Below are positions 34,777-44,566 of a stretch of 64,000 nt of DNA, in pieces; the stretch's first letter is position 1, and every line of letters begins with the position of its first letter. The stretch is from an uncultured delta proteobacterium (lineage in GTDB: Bacteria > Myxococcota > UBA727 > VGSZ01). Where the stretch lies: assembly GCA_963775425.1 (NCBI GenBank), contig CAVZJB010000011.1:160001-224000 (forward strand), in the 5' to 3' direction. The notes under the pieces are model-generated. The model saw only the letters and a list, made by a program, of their open reading frames with translations. It was not told the origin of the DNA and ran no database searches. A program made the translations under genes and the position numbers.

Positions 34777-36741
34777 TCAGCAGCCGTTCGTGACGACCCA
34801 GCCGGGCGGGATGCAGGAGTCCTGGAACACCACGCACTGGCCGCTCACCGGATCCATGGCGGCCGTCACCACGTCGGCGCACTGGGCGGCGCACCAGCCG
34901 GAGCACACGGCGAGGTCGCTGTTGGGATCGTCGAGGCAGACGTCGGGGTCGAAGCGGCAGCTCCCGCGGGCGACCGTGCCGTCGGCGGAGGCGCACGCAG
35001 AGTCGTCCAGGCAGAAGGTGCCCGAGGCGCCGGTGTCGTCGACGCAGACGGGGCCGTCGAGCTCCACGGCGCAGCGCTGTCCGGCGGGGCAGTCGCCGTC
35101 GGCCTGGCACGTGGCGGGCGGCGCGAGCGGCGCGCACAGGCCGGGGCACTGCGCGACGAGGGCGCCGGGGCCGCAGGCGAGCAGGCTGAAGTCGCAGAAT
35201 TCGTCCGGGCTGCAGTCGGCGTCGGCGAAGCAGGTGGGCTCGACCTGCACGCAGACGTTGTCGGGGCGGCAATCGGGATCGCACGGGGGCGGCGCGACGC
35301 CGCTGCCGTCGCCGCCGGGGGCGGGGGGCTCGGCGCAGGTGCCGCACACGCTGACGGCGACGCAGGCGCCGCCGGGGCCACAGTCGGCGTCGCTGTTGCA
35401 CTCGGCCGGCGGCGGCGCGCCGTCGACGCAGGTGCCCTCGACGAAGCAAGGCGCGGCGCAGTTGAGGTCGTTGCCCGAGGGGTCGCACGCGGGGCAGGAC
35501 TCGACGAGCTCGCAGTGCTGGCCGTCGAGGCAGTCGGCGTCGGCGGTGCAGGAGGGGCTGGCGGGCACGCACACCGGCTGCGGCGCGGGCTGCGCGCAGT
35601 CGCACCCGTTGGGCGTGCTCGGGTCGCAGCCGCAGGGCGTCGAGCTGGTGCCGCCGTCGACGAGGGTGCAGCGGGGATCGGCGCTGCACTGATCGGGCGT
35701 GAGCGCGCCGCAGCTCTGATCGCTCGGGCCGCACACGCCGCTCTCGGTCCAACACTGATCGAAGCAGGTCTGGCTGCCGTCGGCGTTCACCTCGCAGCCG
35801 CTGCCGCACACGGTGGTGAGCGAGCAGACCTCGCCGGCGAAGCAGTCGGCGTCGCTGAAGCAGTCGCCGCCGTCCGAGGAGCGGGGCACGCAGACGAGGT
35901 CCGGCGGCGGCGGCGGCGCCGGGTCGGTGCCGGTGCAATTCGGGTCGGCGGCGTCGCACGGGGCGGGGGCGCCGTCGCTCCCGCCGCCGCTGGCGCCGGC
36001 GTTGGTGCCGTCGACGGACTTGAGGATGCAGTTGGGGTTCGACTCGCACGAGTCGGGCCCGAGGACGGAGCAGTCGTCGACGGCGCCGCACAGCGTGTTG
36101 CCCGCGGGGTCGTCGATGAGCTGGCAGCCCGGGCTGAGCTGGCACTGGTCGGGGGCGAGGCCGCGGCAGCCGTCGACGGGGACGCAGCCCAGCGCGCACG
36201 GATCGCCCGAGGGCGCGAGGCCGACCTCGGTGCCGGGCGGGCACTCGGGCAGGGCGACGCCGGCGCCGGCGCAGTTGGCGTCGACGCAGACGCCGGCGGG
36301 GGCGGGGAGCTGCGGGGCGGCGTCGCCGTTTTGGTCGGGCGGGGGCGCGGGGCGCTGGTTGGCGTCGCCGCCGTTGTCGATGAGCGCGCAGGCCTGGCCG
36401 GCGGCGCAGTCGGCGTCGGAGGTGCACGAGGCCGGAGCGTCGACGCAGCGGCCGTAGCAGGCGTCGGGGCAGGGGCCGTCCCCTTCGCAGTTGGGCGCGG
36501 GCTCGCAGAAGTCCACGCTGTCGCAGCGCTGGCCCGCCCCGCACTCGCTGCTGTCCCAGCACACGGTGACCTCGGGCGTGGTGCACTCGCAGATGGAGCA
36601 GCCGTCGCGGTCCTGCTTGTAGTCGTCGCACTGCAGGTCCGGGCAGACGTCGTCGAGGCTCGGGCACTGCGCCGCATCCACGAAGATGTTGCACCCGGGG
36701 AGGGCGGCGAGGGCGGCGACGAGGAGGAGGGCGCTGCGCAT
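34777..36741 (-). CDS. Cysteine-rich lipoprotein with CxxDxDC repeats and an antistasin-like N-terminal motif
   Basis: [17 protein letters not shown]; [21 protein letters not shown]; many C-x2-DADC-x5-C. Confidence 0.8.
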
Positions 36742-37002
36742 GGGACTCCCGCGAGCAGCCATCATGCCACGAAAAAACGAGCTAAGTCCCCGATGTTTCG
36801 GGCTGTCTCCGCGGTTTTGACCCCGCACCTGCGATCTCGAGATCGCAGCCGAGCGCCTCGGTGGGCGTCGCGGCTCGTCCGCCGCCCCTGCGCGTCCGGG
36901 ATCCGCGCGCGCAAATTCGCGCCGCCTCGGACGGAGGTTCTTGAAGGGAGGCCCCCTTGTGGCCTCGGTTCCTTTGATCGATGGGCACGGCGAGGTGAAG
37001 AC

Positions 37003-39389: not shown

Positions 39390-40415
39390 CCGCGTCGACG
39401 GCGCGCCGCAGCGTTTCGTGCCCCGCGTCGACGCTCCGTCGTGGGGCGCGGGCTCGTCCCGCGCATCGGATGTGCGGCGGCCGCGTCGACGCTCCGTCGT
39501 GGGCGCGGGCTTGTCCCGCGTCGACGCTGGCGCGGGCTCGTCCCGCGCATCGGATGCGCGGCGGCCGCGTCGACGCTCCGTCGTGGGCGCAGGCTTGTCC
39601 CGCGCATCGGATGCGCGGCCGCGTCGACGCTCCATCGTGGGGCGCGGGCTTGTCCCGCGTCGACGCTGGCGCGGGCTCGTCCCGCGCATCGGATGCGCGG
39701 CGGCCGCGTCGACGCTCCGTCGTGGGGCGCGGGCTTGTCCCGCGTCGACGCTCCGTCGTGGGGCGCGGGCTTGTCCCGCGTCGACGCTGGCGCGGGCTCG
39801 TCCCGCGCACCGGATGTGCGGCGGCCGCGTCGACGCTCCGTCGTCGGGCGCGGGCTTGTCCCGCGTCGACGCTCCATCGTGGGGCGCGGGCTCGTCCCGC
39901 GCATCGGATGCGCGGCGGCCGCGTCGACGCTCCGTCGTGGGCGCGGGCTTGTCCCGCGTCGACGCTCCATCATGGGGCGCGGGCTTGTCCCGCGCATCGG
40001 ATGCGCGGCCGCGTCGACGCTCCGTCGTGGGCGCGGGCATGTCCCGCGTCGACGCTCCATCGTCGGGCGCGGGCTTGTCCCGCGTCGACGCTGGCGCGGG
40101 CTCGTCCCGCGCACCGGATGTGCGGCGGCCGCGTCGACGCTCCGTGGGGCGCGGGCTCGTCCCGCGCATCGGATGGCGGCGGCCGCGTCGACGCTCCGTC
40201 GTGGGGCGCGGGCTTGTCCCGCGTCGACGCTGGCGCGGGCTCGTCCCGCGCACCGGATGTGCGGCGGCCGCGTCGACGCTCCGTCGTGGGGCGCGGGCTC
40301 GTCCCGCGCATCGGATGGCGGCGGCCGCGTCGACGCCCGTGCCCCGCGTGCCGGCCGCGTCGACGGTGCGCGTCATCGCGCGCGGCCTTGGCTGCGCCCC
40401 ACGCGTCGACGCCCG
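39390..40415. repeat. Intergenic mosaic repeat array of palindromic modules
   Basis: About 24 GCGTCGACG cores, interleaved with GGCGCGGGCTYGTCCC and CGCGCAYCGGATGYGCG modules in varying order. Confidence 0.9.
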
Positions 40416-40504: not shown

Positions 40505-40924
40505 ATGGCCCCCGCTCAGAGCCCCGCCGCCGCCCGCGCCTTACCCCTCGTCGCCTACGGCCTGCTCGGCCTCGCCGCCGCTGCCGCGCTCTTCGTCGCG
40601 CGCCCGGTCGCGCCGGGCGCGGAGGTGGGCGTACAGGTGAGCGAACAGACGCGCATCGAGACCCACATCGTCTCCGCCGTCCGCACCCTCGACGCCACGC
40701 GGCTCGCGGGTGTCTACCGCGCCGGCGACGCGCGCCTGATCCTCGCCGTCGACGGCACCTGGGCGGCCTTCGGCGCGGCCGTCGGCGGCGCGACCTCCGG
40801 CCGGTGGAGCGTCGCCGGCCCGATGCTCACCCTCGGCGTCGTCACCATCGCCCCCGACAGCGACGACGTCCTGCGCCTGCACGGCACCACCTGGGTCGCC
40901 GTCGCCGACGGAGGCTCGCGATGA
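40505..40924 (+). CDS. Hypothetical membrane-anchored small beta-rich protein
   Basis: N-terminal TM; LAGVY...DGTW...SGRWSV; ATGA overlap with the next gene. Confidence 0.6.
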   Translation: MAPAQSPAAARALPLVAYGLLGLAAAAALFVARPVAPGAEVGVQVSEQTRIETHIVSAVRTLDATRLAGVYRAGDARLILAVDGTWAAFGAAVGGATSGRWSVAGPMLTLGVVTIAPDSDDVLRLHGTTWVAVADGGSR

Positions 40925-41841
40925 AGCGCCGCTCGTTCCTCGGGCTCGCGGCGTCGTCCGCGCTGTGGCCCGCCTTCGTGCAGCGCGCCTTCGCCGCCGA
41001 GGGCCCCGGCATCGGCGTCGAGCACGGCGTCGACGACGTCGGGGCCGCCTTCCGCCGCGCCGCGCGCCGGGGCAAGCCGCTCCTTATCCTCGTCATCCCC
41101 GCCGACGACAGCGAGAAGTACACGCGCGGCGAGGTGTGGGGCGAGGTCCTCAACCACGGCAGCGACGACGCGCTCGCCGCCTTCGCCCTCGCCGAGGTCG
41201 TCTGCGCGACCACCGCGGCGATGAAGCGGGTGGTGCCCGCCGCGCCCGCCGGCGAGCCGCTGTTCGTCCTCGTCGAGACCGCGCGCATCCCGGCGCCCGC
41301 CGCGGGGTTCACCGCCGACCTGCCCGCGTACGACCAGATCCGCCGCTACGACAGCTCCGTGCCGTGGGAGGAGCGCCTTCGCCGCGAAAAGGAGACGAGC
41401 CTCGCCCGCATCCGGGCGCTCGGCGCCCTCGTCGGGGCCGCCGTCTTCGGCAGCGTCGGAGAGCGCCTCGCGGGCCGCGTCGCCCAGGCCGAGGCCGCGC
41501 TCTCCGCCGAGGACAAGCGCGCGCTCGCCGCCATCCTCGAGCGGGTGTCGCCGTCGCCGCCGCCCGCCGCTGCGCCCGCGCCCGAGGACCTCGCGCTCGT
41601 CGACCGCGCCGCCGCGCTCGTCGCCGCCGCCGGCCCCGACGGCGTCGCCCTCGCCGCCCGCGCCGCCCGCGCGCGCATCGTGGACAAGCCGCCGCGGGGC
41701 GCGAAGTGGGCGCACGGCGGCGGCTGCGGCGTGCGCGTCGAGGGCGACGACGACAACGTCGGCATCGCCTGCGGCATGGGCCACACCCCCGAGCTCGCGC
41801 AGCGCTTCCTCTACTTCTTCACCAAGGGCCCCTACGAGTGA
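40921..41841 (+). CDS. Tat-signal hypothetical protein with C-terminal Cys motif
   Basis: MKRRSFLGLAA...AFA; C-terminal GGCG...IACGMGHTPELAQRFLYFF. Confidence 0.8.
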   Translation: MKRRSFLGLAASSALWPAFVQRAFAAEGPGIGVEHGVDDVGAAFRRAARRGKPLLILVIPADDSEKYTRGEVWGEVLNHGSDDALAAFALAEVVCATTAAMKRVVPAAPAGEPLFVLVETARIPAPAAGFTADLPAYDQIRRYDSSVPWEERLRREKETSLARIRALGALVGAAVFGSVGERLAGRVAQAEAALSAEDKRALAAILERVSPSPPPAAAPAPEDLALVDRAAALVAAAGPDGVALAARAARARIVDKPPRGAKWAHGGGCGVRVEGDDDNVGIACGMGHTPELAQRFLYFFTKGPYE

Positions 41842-41893
41842 CCCGTCGTCGCCGCCACCGGGGCGCCGCGCGCCCGTCGTCGGGGCGCGGGAG

Positions 41894-43129
41894 ATGAGCG
41901 GCGTCGGCGTCGGCTTCACGCTCCAGCCCGACGAGGAATTCCTCGCGCTGTGCGCGGCGCTCCTCGAGCACGCCGACTACGCCGAGCTCGCGCCGGAGAC
42001 CCTGTGGCGCCGCCGCGACGACGGCGCCTTCGTCGAAAACGGCTTCCACGTCGAGGTGGGCCGCATCGTCGACCGGGCCGGCGTCGCCGTGGTCTCCCAC
42101 GGCGTCGGCCTCTCCCTCGGCACCCTCGACGACGCCGACGAGCCGCGGCTGTCGGCGTGGCTCGCGCGCCTGGCGAAGGACGCCGCGCGCTTTCGCTTTC
42201 GCTGGGCCAGCGATCACCTCGGCGCCACCCACATCGGCGGCCTGCACCTGCAGCTCCCCGTGCCGGTGCCGATGACCGCCGCGCACGCCGCGGCCACCCG
42301 GCGCAGGCTCGCGCGCCTCGCCGCCGCCGTCGGCGCGCCCGCCGCCGTCGAGACCACCGCCAACCACTTCGTCCTCGGCGATCCCCTCGACGAGCCCGCG
42401 TTCGTCGCCGCGTGCACCGAGGGCGCCGGCGTCGTGCTCGACCTGCACAACGTCTGGACCATGGCGCAGAACCTCGGCTTCGACGTCGACGCGTACCTGT
42501 CGCGGCTGCCCCTCGATCGCGTCGTCGAGATCCACGTCTCGGGCGGCTCCGAGAGCGATCCGCGCTGGCTCCCGAGCGGGCGCAGCGTGCGCCTCGACAG
42601 CCACGACGGCGCCGTCCCCGAGGCGGTCTGGTCGCTCCTCGCCGCCTGGGCGCCGCGCTGCCCGCGCCTGCAGGGCGTCACGCTCGAGCGCATGGAGGGC
42701 ACCGTCGACGACGACACCGTCCCCTTGCTGCGCGAAGAGCTCGCCCGCGTCCGCAAGCTCGTCGACACGCTGGCGGCGGCCGCGCTCCCACCCGTCGCCG
42801 ACAACCGGCCGGCTGCCGCGAGCGTGCAGGTGGCTCGCCCGCGCTCGCTCGACGAGAGGGCGTACGCCGAGGCGCTGTGCGCGAGCGACCCCGCGGCCGC
42901 GCTCACGGCGCTCGGCGCCGTCGTCGACGAAGACGGCGCGCGCGTCACCGGTCTGCTCGTCGCCAAGCTGCGCTTCGAGCGCGTCATCCAGGGCTCGCGC
43001 GCCGCCGCGGCGCGCTTCCACGAAGATCCCGCCGGCTTCGCCGCCGCCTTCCGCCGCTACCACGCCGCCGTCGCGCCCACCGCGCTCACGCCCGCCGAAG
43101 AAGCCGCCGCGTTCCTCGGGTTCGCGTGA
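41894..43129 (+). CDS. DUF692-family multinuclear non-heme iron enzyme (MNIO) with fused C-terminal helical domain
   Basis: SHGVGLSLG, SDHL, VET, LDLHNV, EIHVSG, LDSHD, TLER; about 110-aa C-terminal extension. Confidence 0.88.
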   Translation: MSGVGVGFTLQPDEEFLALCAALLEHADYAELAPETLWRRRDDGAFVENGFHVEVGRIVDRAGVAVVSHGVGLSLGTLDDADEPRLSAWLARLAKDAARFRFRWASDHLGATHIGGLHLQLPVPVPMTAAHAAATRRRLARLAAAVGAPAAVETTANHFVLGDPLDEPAFVAACTEGAGVVLDLHNVWTMAQNLGFDVDAYLSRLPLDRVVEIHVSGGSESDPRWLPSGRSVRLDSHDGAVPEAVWSLLAAWAPRCPRLQGVTLERMEGTVDDDTVPLLREELARVRKLVDTLAAAALPPVADNRPAAASVQVARPRSLDERAYAEALCASDPAAALTALGAVVDEDGARVTGLLVAKLRFERVIQGSRAAAARFHEDPAGFAAAFRRYHAAVAPTALTPAEEAAAFLGFA

Positions 43130-43171: not shown

Positions 43172-44566
43172 TTGGCGGGCGAGAACGTCTCCGTGCGCAA
43201 CGACGGCGACGTCCACATCCGCTGCCCGATCCACGGGACGCTCCTGGTGAGCACCCGCGAGATCAAGCTCATCGATCACCCCTACTTCCAGAGGCTGCGG
43301 AACATCAAGCAGCTCGGCTTCGCCGACCTCGCCTTCCCCGGCGCCACGCACACACGCTACAGCCACTCGCTCGGCGCGATGCACGTCGCCACGCGGCTGT
43401 TCGATCGCCTCTTTCCACCGCGCGCCCTGGGGCACGAGGGCCCCGGCGCCGATCTGCCGGAGCGGGTGCGTGCGCGGTTCCGGCAGGCGGCGCGCCTGGC
43501 CATGCTCTTTCACGACCTCGGGCACGCGCCGCTGTCGCACACCACCGAGATGCTCATGCCGTCGGTGGGCGAGCTCGGCCTCGGCACCTTCGCCGGCGTC
43601 GACGTCACCCGCGCCGCCACCCACGAGGACTACACGCTCAAGATCGTCCTCGACAGCTCGCTCGGCGAGCTCATCCGCGAGCTGTTCGACGACGACGGCA
43701 TCATGCCGCAGGACGTCGCCGAGCTCATCGCGGGCGCCACGTGGCAGGGACAGAGCGCCCGGTATCGCCACGGCGGCGTCGACTACTCCCCGGTGCTCCG
43801 CCAGATCGTCTCGTCGGAGTGCGACGCCGATCGCATGGACTACCTCCAGAGGGACTCCTTCTACTCGGGCGTCAACTACGGGCGCTTCGACGCCGACTGG
43901 CTCATCGACAACGTCACCACAGTCGAGAAGCAGGGCGCCGTCTATCTCGGCATCAAGTCACGCGCGATCTTCTCGTTCGAGGACTTCCTGCTGTCGCGCT
44001 ACCACATGTTCGCGACGGTCTACCTGCACTACACGCCGGTGATCTTCGAGAAGATGCTCGCGCGCTACTTCGAGCAGGCGCGCGGCGAGTTCGATCTCCC
44101 CGCGGACATCGATCGCTACTGCGCCATCGACGACGTCGACCTCTGGGCCGCGCTACGCAAGTCCAAGAACCCGTGGGCGCGCCGCGTGGTGGAGCGCAAG
44201 CCGTTCGTCCTGCTCGACGAGAAGAACGAGGGCCACCAACAGGTCGGCAGCGGCGTCTCCCACGACGAGCTCGCGGAGCGCCTCGGCGCAAAGAGCATCG
44301 AGTACATCCACACCCGCTCGCGCAGCGTGCTCTCCAAGTACTTCCACACCGCCAACAAGAGCCCCATCTTCGTCACCAGCTCGTCGGGGACGCCGGTGTC
44401 GCTCGAGGAGTACACGCCGCTGTACGCGCGCTACGCCAACCCCGCGCTCCTCGAGCGCGTGTTCGTCGATCCGGCGCAGCGGGTCGAGGCGCGGCAGGTG
44501 TTCGCCGAGCTCGTCGAGCAGCGGGAAAAGCGCGAGCTCCCCACCGCGCCGGGCGCGGACGCTTGA
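43172..44566 (+). CDS. HD-superfamily phosphohydrolase (SAMHD1-like dNTPase family)
   Basis: PIHG, FQRLRNIKQLG, ATHTRYSHSLG, HDLGHAPLSH, HE, DADRMDYLQRD. Confidence 0.92.
   Translation: MAGENVSVRNDGDVHIRCPIHGTLLVSTREIKLIDHPYFQRLRNIKQLGFADLAFPGATHTRYSHSLGAMHVATRLFDRLFPPRALGHEGPGADLPERVRARFRQAARLAMLFHDLGHAPLSHTTEMLMPSVGELGLGTFAGVDVTRAATHEDYTLKIVLDSSLGELIRELFDDDGIMPQDVAELIAGATWQGQSARYRHGGVDYSPVLRQIVSSECDADRMDYLQRDSFYSGVNYGRFDADWLIDNVTTVEKQGAVYLGIKSRAIFSFEDFLLSRYHMFATVYLHYTPVIFEKMLARYFEQARGEFDLPADIDRYCAIDDVDLWAALRKSKNPWARRVVERKPFVLLDEKNEGHQQVGSGVSHDELAERLGAKSIEYIHTRSRSVLSKYFHTANKSPIFVTSSSGTPVSLEEYTPLYARYANPALLERVFVDPAQRVEARQVFAELVEQREKRELPTAPGADA

Follow-up and report, generated by a model that had tools for sequence, protein, structure and literature searches.

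Comparative analysis of a myxobacterial MNIO locus points to a protein with a twin-arginine-type signal as the probable substrate of its neighbouring enzyme

We analysed a 64,000-nucleotide stretch of DNA from an uncultured delta proteobacterium of the Myxococcota (contig CAVZJB010000011.1, positions 160,001 to 224,000; hereafter the window), in which three co-oriented genes, A, B and C, encode a small membrane-anchored protein, a predicted exported protein of 306 residues, and an iron enzyme of the MNIO (DUF692) family with an additional helical domain at its C-terminus. Judged from its recurrence across genomes, the system built around gene B is real, conserved and uncharacterised. We think it probable that B is a folded periplasmic protein of ~30 kDa and is itself the substrate of the neighbouring MNIO, by a route resembling that of ChrH; taking ChrH-like and bufferin-like chemistry together, B is very likely a substrate of this enzyme. 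The support is comparative: B and the MNIO are adjacent in nearly all related loci, a pair of cysteines near the C-terminus of B is invariant, B paralogs stand in tandem in ten loci, and no short precursor was found.

The open reading frame (ORF) list places the three genes at 40505-43129 on the plus strand. An earlier note, made from the letters of the window by a model, had described three co-oriented genes with a small membrane protein at their head and an ATGA coupling, and each of these was recovered in its place. The parts are as follows.

40505..40924, plus strand: gene A, 139 residues, with a single N-terminal hydrophobic anchor
40921..41841, plus strand: gene B, 306 residues, predicted to be exported, the proposed substrate
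40921..40995, plus strand: signal peptide of B, twin-arginine type, residues 1-25 (KRRSFL...RAFA), predicted cut after A25
41023..41475, plus strand: putative thioredoxin-like domain of B, residues ~35-185, without CxxC, containing the near-invariant C95
41698..41817, plus strand: conserved C-terminal core of B, residues 260-299, the proposed modification site
41894..43129, plus strand: gene C, 411 residues, MNIO/DUF692 enzyme with C-terminal helical domain
41894..42778, plus strand: catalytic TIM barrel of the MNIO (DUF692), gene C residues 1-295, without a signal peptide
42779..43129, plus strand: gene C linker (296-320) and helical helper domain (321-411), stop codon included

The ATG of gene B overlaps the TGA of gene A as ATGA, and the gaps between B and C (52 nt) and between C and the following gene D (42 nt) are short enough to exclude room for a hidden gene. 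The three main parts are conserved in dozens of genomes, and we regard the genes as real and not as chance ORFs of a region with about 77% G+C.

Gene B belongs to no Pfam or NCBIfam family, and its relatives, which fall into 21 protein clusters among 5.8 billion sequences, carry no informative name. A motif-seeded scan of one genome per species recovered 52 related loci from other genomes, mostly of Myxococcota (Sorangium, Minicystis, Chondromyces, Sandaracinaceae, Nannocystaceae and Bradymonadia), with a few metagenome-assembled genomes (MAGs) labelled Planctomycetota or Acidobacteriota; just 2 of the 41 genomes around the window genome hold B. In 48 of the 52 loci B is followed directly downstream, in the same orientation, by an MNIO of the gene C subfamily (tblastn, 43-60% identity), so that the co-occurrence with this DUF692 subfamily anticipated in the earlier note is borne out. 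All four exceptions have a subfamily MNIO elsewhere in the genome; one of these loci stops at a contig end, and in one of the genomes (G302) the MNIO adjoins a second copy of B (L069). Two to four tandem B paralogs precede a single MNIO in 10 of the 52 loci, each copy with its own RR signal and Cys loop, the largest sets being those of L030 (four copies), L031 and L033 (three each).

Some loci depart from this pattern in detail. The Cys loop is degenerate in some extra copies of B, one of which has no Cys (L018:1680-2250), while others read CGMAR (L052:6345-6929) and HCG...MCGLGY (L026:7026-7979); these could be decaying copies, or natural variants informative about what the enzyme needs. In L005, B and the MNIO stand ~1 kb apart (L005:6969-8035), and within this gap there is no B paralog, gene A relative or convincing plus-strand ORF. 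Two loci come from MAGs labelled Enterobacterales and Actinomycetes (L043 and L046), where the sequence of the module is typically myxobacterial-like; the labels are probably binning or naming errors, and L046 appears frameshifted.

The earlier note had found no short precursor gene in the window, and the related loci agree. When every ORF of at least 35 residues in the 52 loci and the window was compared with every other, just four conserved families appeared, antisense shadows aside, namely those of B, of the MNIO, of the MNIO tail and of an upstream lipoprotein, and there was no conserved small ORF. Short relatives of B were sought in two ways. The motif region against proteins of 30-167 residues gave one candidate with shared short words and nothing that scored, and the family profile scored none of 8000 proteins of 30-127 residues; both searches rely on shared 5-residue words, which limits their sensitivity. 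The three-gene unit of the earlier note is better described as B, the MNIO and a helper that is either fused or split, preceded by a variable gene A that is present in 32 of the 52 loci.

B contains exactly three cysteines (C95, C269 and C284), in agreement with the earlier description, and the latter two lie in the motif KWAHGGGCG-x13-CGMGH, whose spacing had been given as x12. The core follows the pattern G-x2-W-A-x3-G-C269-G-x3-E-...-A-C284-G-M-G-H-x-P-x5-R-F-L. In an alignment of the 52 sequences G260, W263, G268, C269, E274, C284, G285, M286, G287, R295 and L297 are invariant, and the expectation that both Cys and the C-G-M-G stretch would be conserved therefore held; R3, R4, C95 and H288 are conserved at 90% or more. 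Since the total number of Cys varies from 2 to 8 across the family, only the two C-terminal ones are constant: some members lack C95 (the protein of L023 has two Cys only), and H288 is replaced by Tyr or Phe in some. The two constant Cys are 15 residues apart in 38 of the 52 sequences, with a range of 14-31, and position -3 of the motif is never Cys. In the ChrH-type core CPACGMG, as described in PMC13733907, the second Cys is essential and the Gly and Met amides form a hydantoin, while the first Cys acts last and closes a macrocycle; without it oxidation persists and glutathione adds. The invariant C-G-M-G of B matches the essential half of this validated core, which supports a ChrH-like route.

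The AlphaFold2 model of B (predicted local distance difference test score, pLDDT, 87.9; predicted template modelling score, pTM, 0.86) runs from a putative thioredoxin-like domain through a helical region to a C-terminal core of four short strands. G-C269-G lies between two strands, and the loop 281-290 with C284-G-M-G-H, which is the least confident loop (pLDDT 69), connects the strands at 279-281 and 295-298. When the model was searched with VIA-align against 48,161 PDB chains, all 50 matches listed for residues ~35-185 were thioredoxin-fold proteins or domains, the best among them being 3fk8_A with Z 7.2 (root-mean-square deviation 3.2, 111 aligned residues), a middling score by the tool's own standard of Z <8. 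A language-model atlas also places B near thioredoxin clusters (score 0.80). Foldseek against the PDB returned nothing at E <1, no thioredoxin Pfam match was obtained for any of the 52 members, and the CxxC active site is absent from B, the stretch after the first strand (P-A-D-D-S-E-K-Y-T-R-G) having no Cys.

Twin-arginine signal peptides carry the consensus S/T-R-R-x-F-L-K in their n-region. B begins MKRRSFLG...RAFA/AE, and its residues 2-8 (K-R-R-S-F-L-G) fit this consensus, as the earlier reading of KRRSFL had indicated; cleavage after A25 is predicted from the conserved AFA. The motif RR.[FLV..] is found in 51 of the 52 members, the exception being N-terminally cut. PF10518 (TAT_signal), with 16 of 52 members matched (best E 5.8e-4), and TIGR01409, with 9 of 52 (best E 8.2e-4), are the most frequent matches of B members in their respective libraries, and TatC is encoded in the window genome (229.6 bits). 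From the RR motif, the partial matches to these models and the presence of TatC we infer, as a reasonable reading, that B is exported through twin-arginine translocation (Tat).

Residues 4-288 of gene C match PF05114 (MbnB_TglH_ChrH), scoring 124.9 bits where the gathering score is 25 (E 4.3e-36); PF09836 has no match in gene C. Its AlphaFold2 model (pLDDT 93.3, pTM 0.92) shows a TIM barrel (1-295) that a linker of low confidence (296-320) connects to a helical bundle (321-411), and the best Foldseek matches were TglH (8hi7_B, E 3.9e-14, TMt 0.73) and MbnB (7fc0_B, E 7.9e-13), with HS_1138 (3bww) also among them. The metal-ligand motifs HG.G, DH.G, E, LD.HN, E.H.SGG, RLDSHD and ER are invariant in 35 members of the subfamily, as are the residues H69, H108, E153, D183, N186, H214, D235, H237 and E268, and all three iron-site motifs, the third-iron D-x-H included; the ligand motifs are visible likewise in ChrH-like sequences. 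By analogy with the DybH numbering of PMC13733907 these residues would be ligands of Fe1-3. Both the assignment to DUF692 with its expected ligands and the extra helical C-terminus, as proposed in the earlier note, are upheld by these results.

Within the MNIOs sampled, the ChrH-like enzymes are nearest to gene C. Its identity to Myxococcota ChrH-like enzymes, which score 228-243 bits on the ChrH model, is 35-42%, compared with 29-31% to seven of eight other sampled MNIOs, the eighth (L067) giving 35% over a partial 170-residue piece. In a quick maximum-likelihood tree, computed without bootstrap or reference MbnB, TglH and ApyH sequences, rooted at the midpoint and containing one very long branch, a branch with 97% support in the Shimodaira-Hasegawa-like approximate likelihood-ratio test unites the B-linked enzymes (a clade of 35 rows, 87%) and the ChrH-like clade, leaving six other MNIOs outside. 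Two of the genomes with the B system, G302 and G304, contain a further MNIO that falls in the ChrH-like clade of this tree (L073 and L074). On the NCBIfam models gene C scores, in bits over cut-off, 108.9/600 for ChrH (NF050165, with model positions 59-285 of 363 aligned), 102.9/310 for BufB, 81.7/360 for HvfB, 52.8/400 for ApyH and 23.4/325 for MbnB. A predicted complex of the MNIO (411 residues) with mature B (30-306) and three Fe, run without controls, gave ipSAE values of 0.00, 0.58 and 0.00, which carry no weight either way as to binding.

Precursors with PCPACGMMM or FCPACGRMQ were seen in two of the four Myxococcota ChrH-like loci. They are small proteins (L059:2527-2727 and L057:2527-2811, both on the minus strand) in which these cores are embedded before a C-terminal extension, corresponding to the myxobacterial type in PMC13056109, where some precursors are described with an embedded CPACGMMM.

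The helical tail of gene C is supported as a separable partner or helper of the MNIO by its distribution among relatives. In the model it forms six helices (residues 321-410), with pLDDT 87-98 per ten-residue block over 321-411 as against 61-63 for the linker. The enzyme end is complete in 44 loci: 11 of them have the tail fused in the MNIO frame, and 33 encode it on its own as a gene of 109-184 residues, whose start overlaps the MNIO stop in 27 cases. Enzymes with fused and with split tails intermingle in the tree, so that fusion or fission occurred more than once. Searched against 1.84 billion proteins, a profile of the tail matched 330 representative clusters. Of the 150 best matches, 19 have at least 400 residues, and both of those tested carry PF05114, while the other relatives are mostly stand-alone proteins of ~110-200 residues. 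Pfam placed none of 18 tail members in a relevant family, PF09836 included, and against PDB sequences the profile gave three chance rows (E 0.24 or higher) without TglI, MbnC or NGO1945. The atlas inclines weakly toward SCO6045_C and MbnC-like clusters, with scores of 0.77-0.82 that serve as leads only. The idea of the tail as a built-in partner agrees with its fused and split occurrence, whereas the likeness to DUF2063 or a RiPP (ribosomally synthesised and post-translationally modified peptide) recognition element (RRE) that had been suggested is not demonstrable: a stretch F..a.r.Y...P......F..fL looks similar to DUF2063 by eye and is not significant.

Gene A matches no Pfam or NCBIfam family. 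In 32 of the 52 loci the gene directly 5' of B (in L042 the one between B and the MNIO) encodes a lipoprotein with a lipobox Cys; this protein is ~300 residues long in most of these and shorter in some, and Pfam and NCBIfam searches with this family gave nothing relevant. Aligned with the C-terminal part of lipoprotein family A5, gene A reached an hhalign probability of 39.5% (E 3e-4, 52 columns), and a profile of the lipoprotein C-domain found gene A among 4066 ORFs with an hmmsearch E of 7.6e-4. From this weak homology and the equivalent position, gene A is probably a short form of the ~300-residue lipoprotein; a short gene A-like form is present also in a relative, G008. The lipobox Cys is the only conserved Cys of the family.

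Since the MNIO lacks a signal peptide and B has one, the two could meet only before export, in the cytoplasm. We suggest that the iron enzyme would there recognise B with the aid of the helical domain, fused here and a separate small protein in most relatives, and would oxidise the invariant Cys284 of the A-C-G-M-G-H loop. By analogy with ChrH and DybH acting on CPA-CGMG, the thiol would become a thioaldehyde and the Gly-Met backbone would close into a hydantoin-type heterocycle; Cys269 of G-C-G, 15 residues upstream, may capture an intermediate and so form an intramolecular cross-link. Tat would then export the folded, modified B, whose site of action would be the periplasm; the gene A product, membrane-anchored or a lipoprotein, may act with it there. 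Of the earlier proposal that B is the substrate, the linkage, Cys conservation and tandem copies lend support to the core, whereas the modification itself, its chemistry, Tat export and the function of B, whether metal binding or a protein-derived cofactor, are parts that we infer.

A more tentative extension, which we hold to be possible though doubtful, is that the MNIO builds a Cys-derived covalent cofactor or cross-link inside a folded thioredoxin-like protein. A new redox or metal-handling protein of the periplasm would result, with the gene A lipoprotein as its working partner. Cys269 and Cys284 could be joined by a hydantoin/thioaminal bridge, or two thio-heterocycles could form, with His288 and Glu274 at their flanks; since the product would be folded and cross-linked, the cell would have to use Tat. 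If true, this would be a maturation pathway for a protein-derived cofactor built on RiPP enzymology.

Several observations weigh against B as a ChrH-type substrate exported by Tat. The core of B is never C-terminal, being followed by 14-39 residues, it lacks the CP-x-C half of the ChrH-type motif, and it sits amid confident beta-strands of a folded model, where it is not clear how it would reach the active site of a TIM barrel. The tail of gene C gave an hhalign probability of 0.6% with four ChrH-like tails and of 1.85% with 22 DUF2063 domains. The signal of the window's own B is unmatched by PF10518 and TIGR01409 at E up to 10, and RR is common in the Arg-rich proteomes of high-G+C genomes. 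Two genomes, G008 and G301, carry B and the MNIO without linkage. Finally, the BufB and HvfB scores of gene C nearly equal its ChrH score, all of them far under the cut-offs, so that hydantoin chemistry is only one option, and a thiooxazole or an oxazolone-thioamide at one or both small-C-G sites would be comparably plausible.

The last point leads to a different view of the chemistry, in which B is a substrate modified in the manner of bufferins, oxazolins or methanobactins: G-C269-G, A-C284-G or both would be converted to a thiooxazole or an oxazolone/thioamide and, with His288 and Glu274, would form a site for copper or another metal. All 35 subfamily members match the ChrH, BufB and HvfB models, Gly follows both invariant Cys as in the EGKCG sites cited in PMC13056109, an invariant E274 and near-invariant H288 stand beside the Cys, and PMC12452194 describes copper binding for most characterised products of Cys-modifying MNIOs. 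However, there is no DUF2063 partner, the ORF comparison of the 52 loci shows no conserved copper-related neighbour, the nearest sampled enzymes are ChrH-like, and the invariant Met286 and Gly287 after the Cys fit a hydantoin-forming C-G-M-G better; on balance we consider this chemistry unlikely.

It is also conceivable, and in our judgement improbable, that B is no substrate at all but an ordinary Tat-exported metalloprotein or thioredoxin-like periplasmic factor that binds a metal by its Cys/His/Glu motif, while the MNIO has a different target and is merely co-regulated. A confidently folded protein of 30 kDa would suit such a role, C95, C269, C284 and H288 could make up a Cys3-His site, the two unlinked genomes are in keeping with it, and PMC12452194 calls the assignment of precursors to unknown ORFs hazardous. 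Nevertheless, C95 and H288 are the very residues that some members lack or replace, the core of B resembles a validated MNIO core, the comparison yielded no conserved alternative ORF, and B adjoins the MNIO in 48 of the 52 loci and is amplified before a single enzyme in ten. We give very little weight to a further scenario in which the signal-less MNIO, bound to folded B, hitch-hikes through Tat and finds its target on the periplasmic side, the gene A lipoprotein being one candidate; in its favour, a gene for a conserved periplasmic lipoprotein precedes B in 32 of the 52 loci. We know of no MNIO that acts outside the cytoplasm, the gene A family offers no conserved Cys apart from that of the lipobox, and the invariant Cys loop of B would be left unexplained. 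The transport itself has a precedent, as Tat exports pre-assembled complexes on the signal of one partner (10.1101/2023.11.02.564894).

Gene D (43172-44566, plus strand), which encodes an HD domain (PF01966) plus HD_assoc_2 and begins 42 nt after the MNIO, was considered as a further component and lies outside the system, because tblastn found nothing equivalent to it next to B in the 52 related loci. A kinase was set aside likewise, tblastn beside B in these loci having given unrelated kinase matches only. A promoter scan found no site and three terminator-like sites, all on the minus strand, and is uninformative. Between a minus-strand MltF-like gene and gene A, an imperfect tandem-repeat array of 865 bp (39444-40308; period ~85 nt, ~9.9 copies, 77% matches, sub-periods of 27, 36 and 55 nt) leaves several reading frames open and inflates the ORF listing there. 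Large genes for Cys-rich, secreted lipoprotein-like proteins with many C-x-C and D-x-D-C repeats lie near B in the window (~34777-36760, minus strand) and in G008 (L004:3585-4715, plus strand). The window genome has two further MNIO genes, one (L076, G000:C16:4075-5159) with 303.8 bits on PF05114 and an adjoining DUF2063 match, the arrangement of a bufferin-type cluster, and one (L078, G000:C11:576899-577600) with 87.9 bits and a very long branch in the tree.

Among characterised systems, ChrH, DybH and MelH with their substrates ChrA, DybA and MelA1 (PMC10214503, PMC13056109, PMC13733907) offer the closest parallel. According to PMC13056109, enzymes of the ChrH family carry a C-terminal helical bundle of ~7.8 kDa that other characterised MNIOs are described as lacking, in clusters of the cyanobacterial type this bundle is a separate protein, MelHc, needed for activity, and MelA1, a secreted protein of 34 kDa, is modified (-4 Da) by MelH plus the split helical domain. 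The B system shares with this group an MNIO core joined to a fused or split C-terminal helical domain, the absence of a DUF2063 partner, and a substrate with an export signal, which can be a full-size secreted protein; the invariant C-G-M-G of B corresponds to the second half of CPACGMG with its essential Cys. The same source gives CPxCGxG, most often CPACGMG, as the mark of ChrH-type substrates, whereas B has no Cys at -3 and instead an invariant Cys 14-31 residues upstream, and its core lies in a loop amid predicted strands, 14-39 residues from the end, instead of at a free C-terminus. The signal of B is of the Tat type, not Sec or lipoprotein, the helper here has ~90-115 residues compared with ~70 and no detectable sequence relation to its counterpart, and an upstream lipoprotein gene and tandem substrate paralogs are found in addition. 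The system thus follows the ChrH/DybH/MelH logic yet falls outside that group, because gene C reaches 108.9 bits against the model cut-off of 600, the CPxC half-motif is absent and the tails show no detectable homology.

Bufferins and oxazolins (BufABC, HvfABC; PMC11626156, PMC11252979, PMC12452194) resemble the B system in having Cys-modifying MNIOs and signal-peptide substrates that act in the periplasm, some of them long, and in a hidden Markov model similarity about as high as that to ChrH. They differ in their DUF2063-RRE partner, which is missing here, in the Cys content of their substrates (just two Cys are conserved in B, which has no relation to the DUF2282, BUF_6/12Cys and EGKCG families), and in the enzyme, gene C falling under the BufB (NF050167) and HvfB cut-offs. 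PMC12452194 also describes short DUF2063-like 'PME-type 2' partners of MNIO clusters; like the helper, these are all-helical proteins of ~115 residues that directly follow the MNIO and have no Pfam signature, and a relation between the two was undetected by hhalign against DUF2063 (1.85%) and by the PDB profile search, which returned none of TglI, MbnC and NGO1945.

Our literature search found nothing that joins an MNIO with a twin-arginine signal or Tat, and nothing on CGMGH in the sense used here; the supplementary member lists of MNIO papers lay outside the search and may include the B family. The available text of PMC12452194 contains neither 'Tat' nor 'Myxococc'. The earlier note overestimated the novelty of the locus, given that an MNIO acting on a secreted protein of >30 kDa, and a C-terminal helical domain that is fused or split, are already in print for ChrH/DybH/MelH (PMC13056109). 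MNIOs are an actively mined source of novel peptide chemistry, and how far they reach onto real proteins is a current question, raised in PMC12452194 (2025), where it is suggested that MNIOs may modify proteins, and in PMC13056109 (2026). The B family offers a clean two-component test case in culturable strains of Sorangium, Minicystis and Chondromyces, which could show whether an MNIO can act within a folded domain, on one of its loops, whether the CP-x-C thiol can be replaced by a distant second Cys, and whether cytoplasmic modification is coupled to Tat export; the helper domain, with its 330 representative clusters and no Pfam name, would gain a function. What distinguishes the B system from the characterised ones is its combination of another MNIO subfamily, a helper with no detectable relation to theirs, a GCG-x13-ACGMGH core embedded in a thioredoxin-like protein that has a Tat-type signal, and a conserved upstream lipoprotein.

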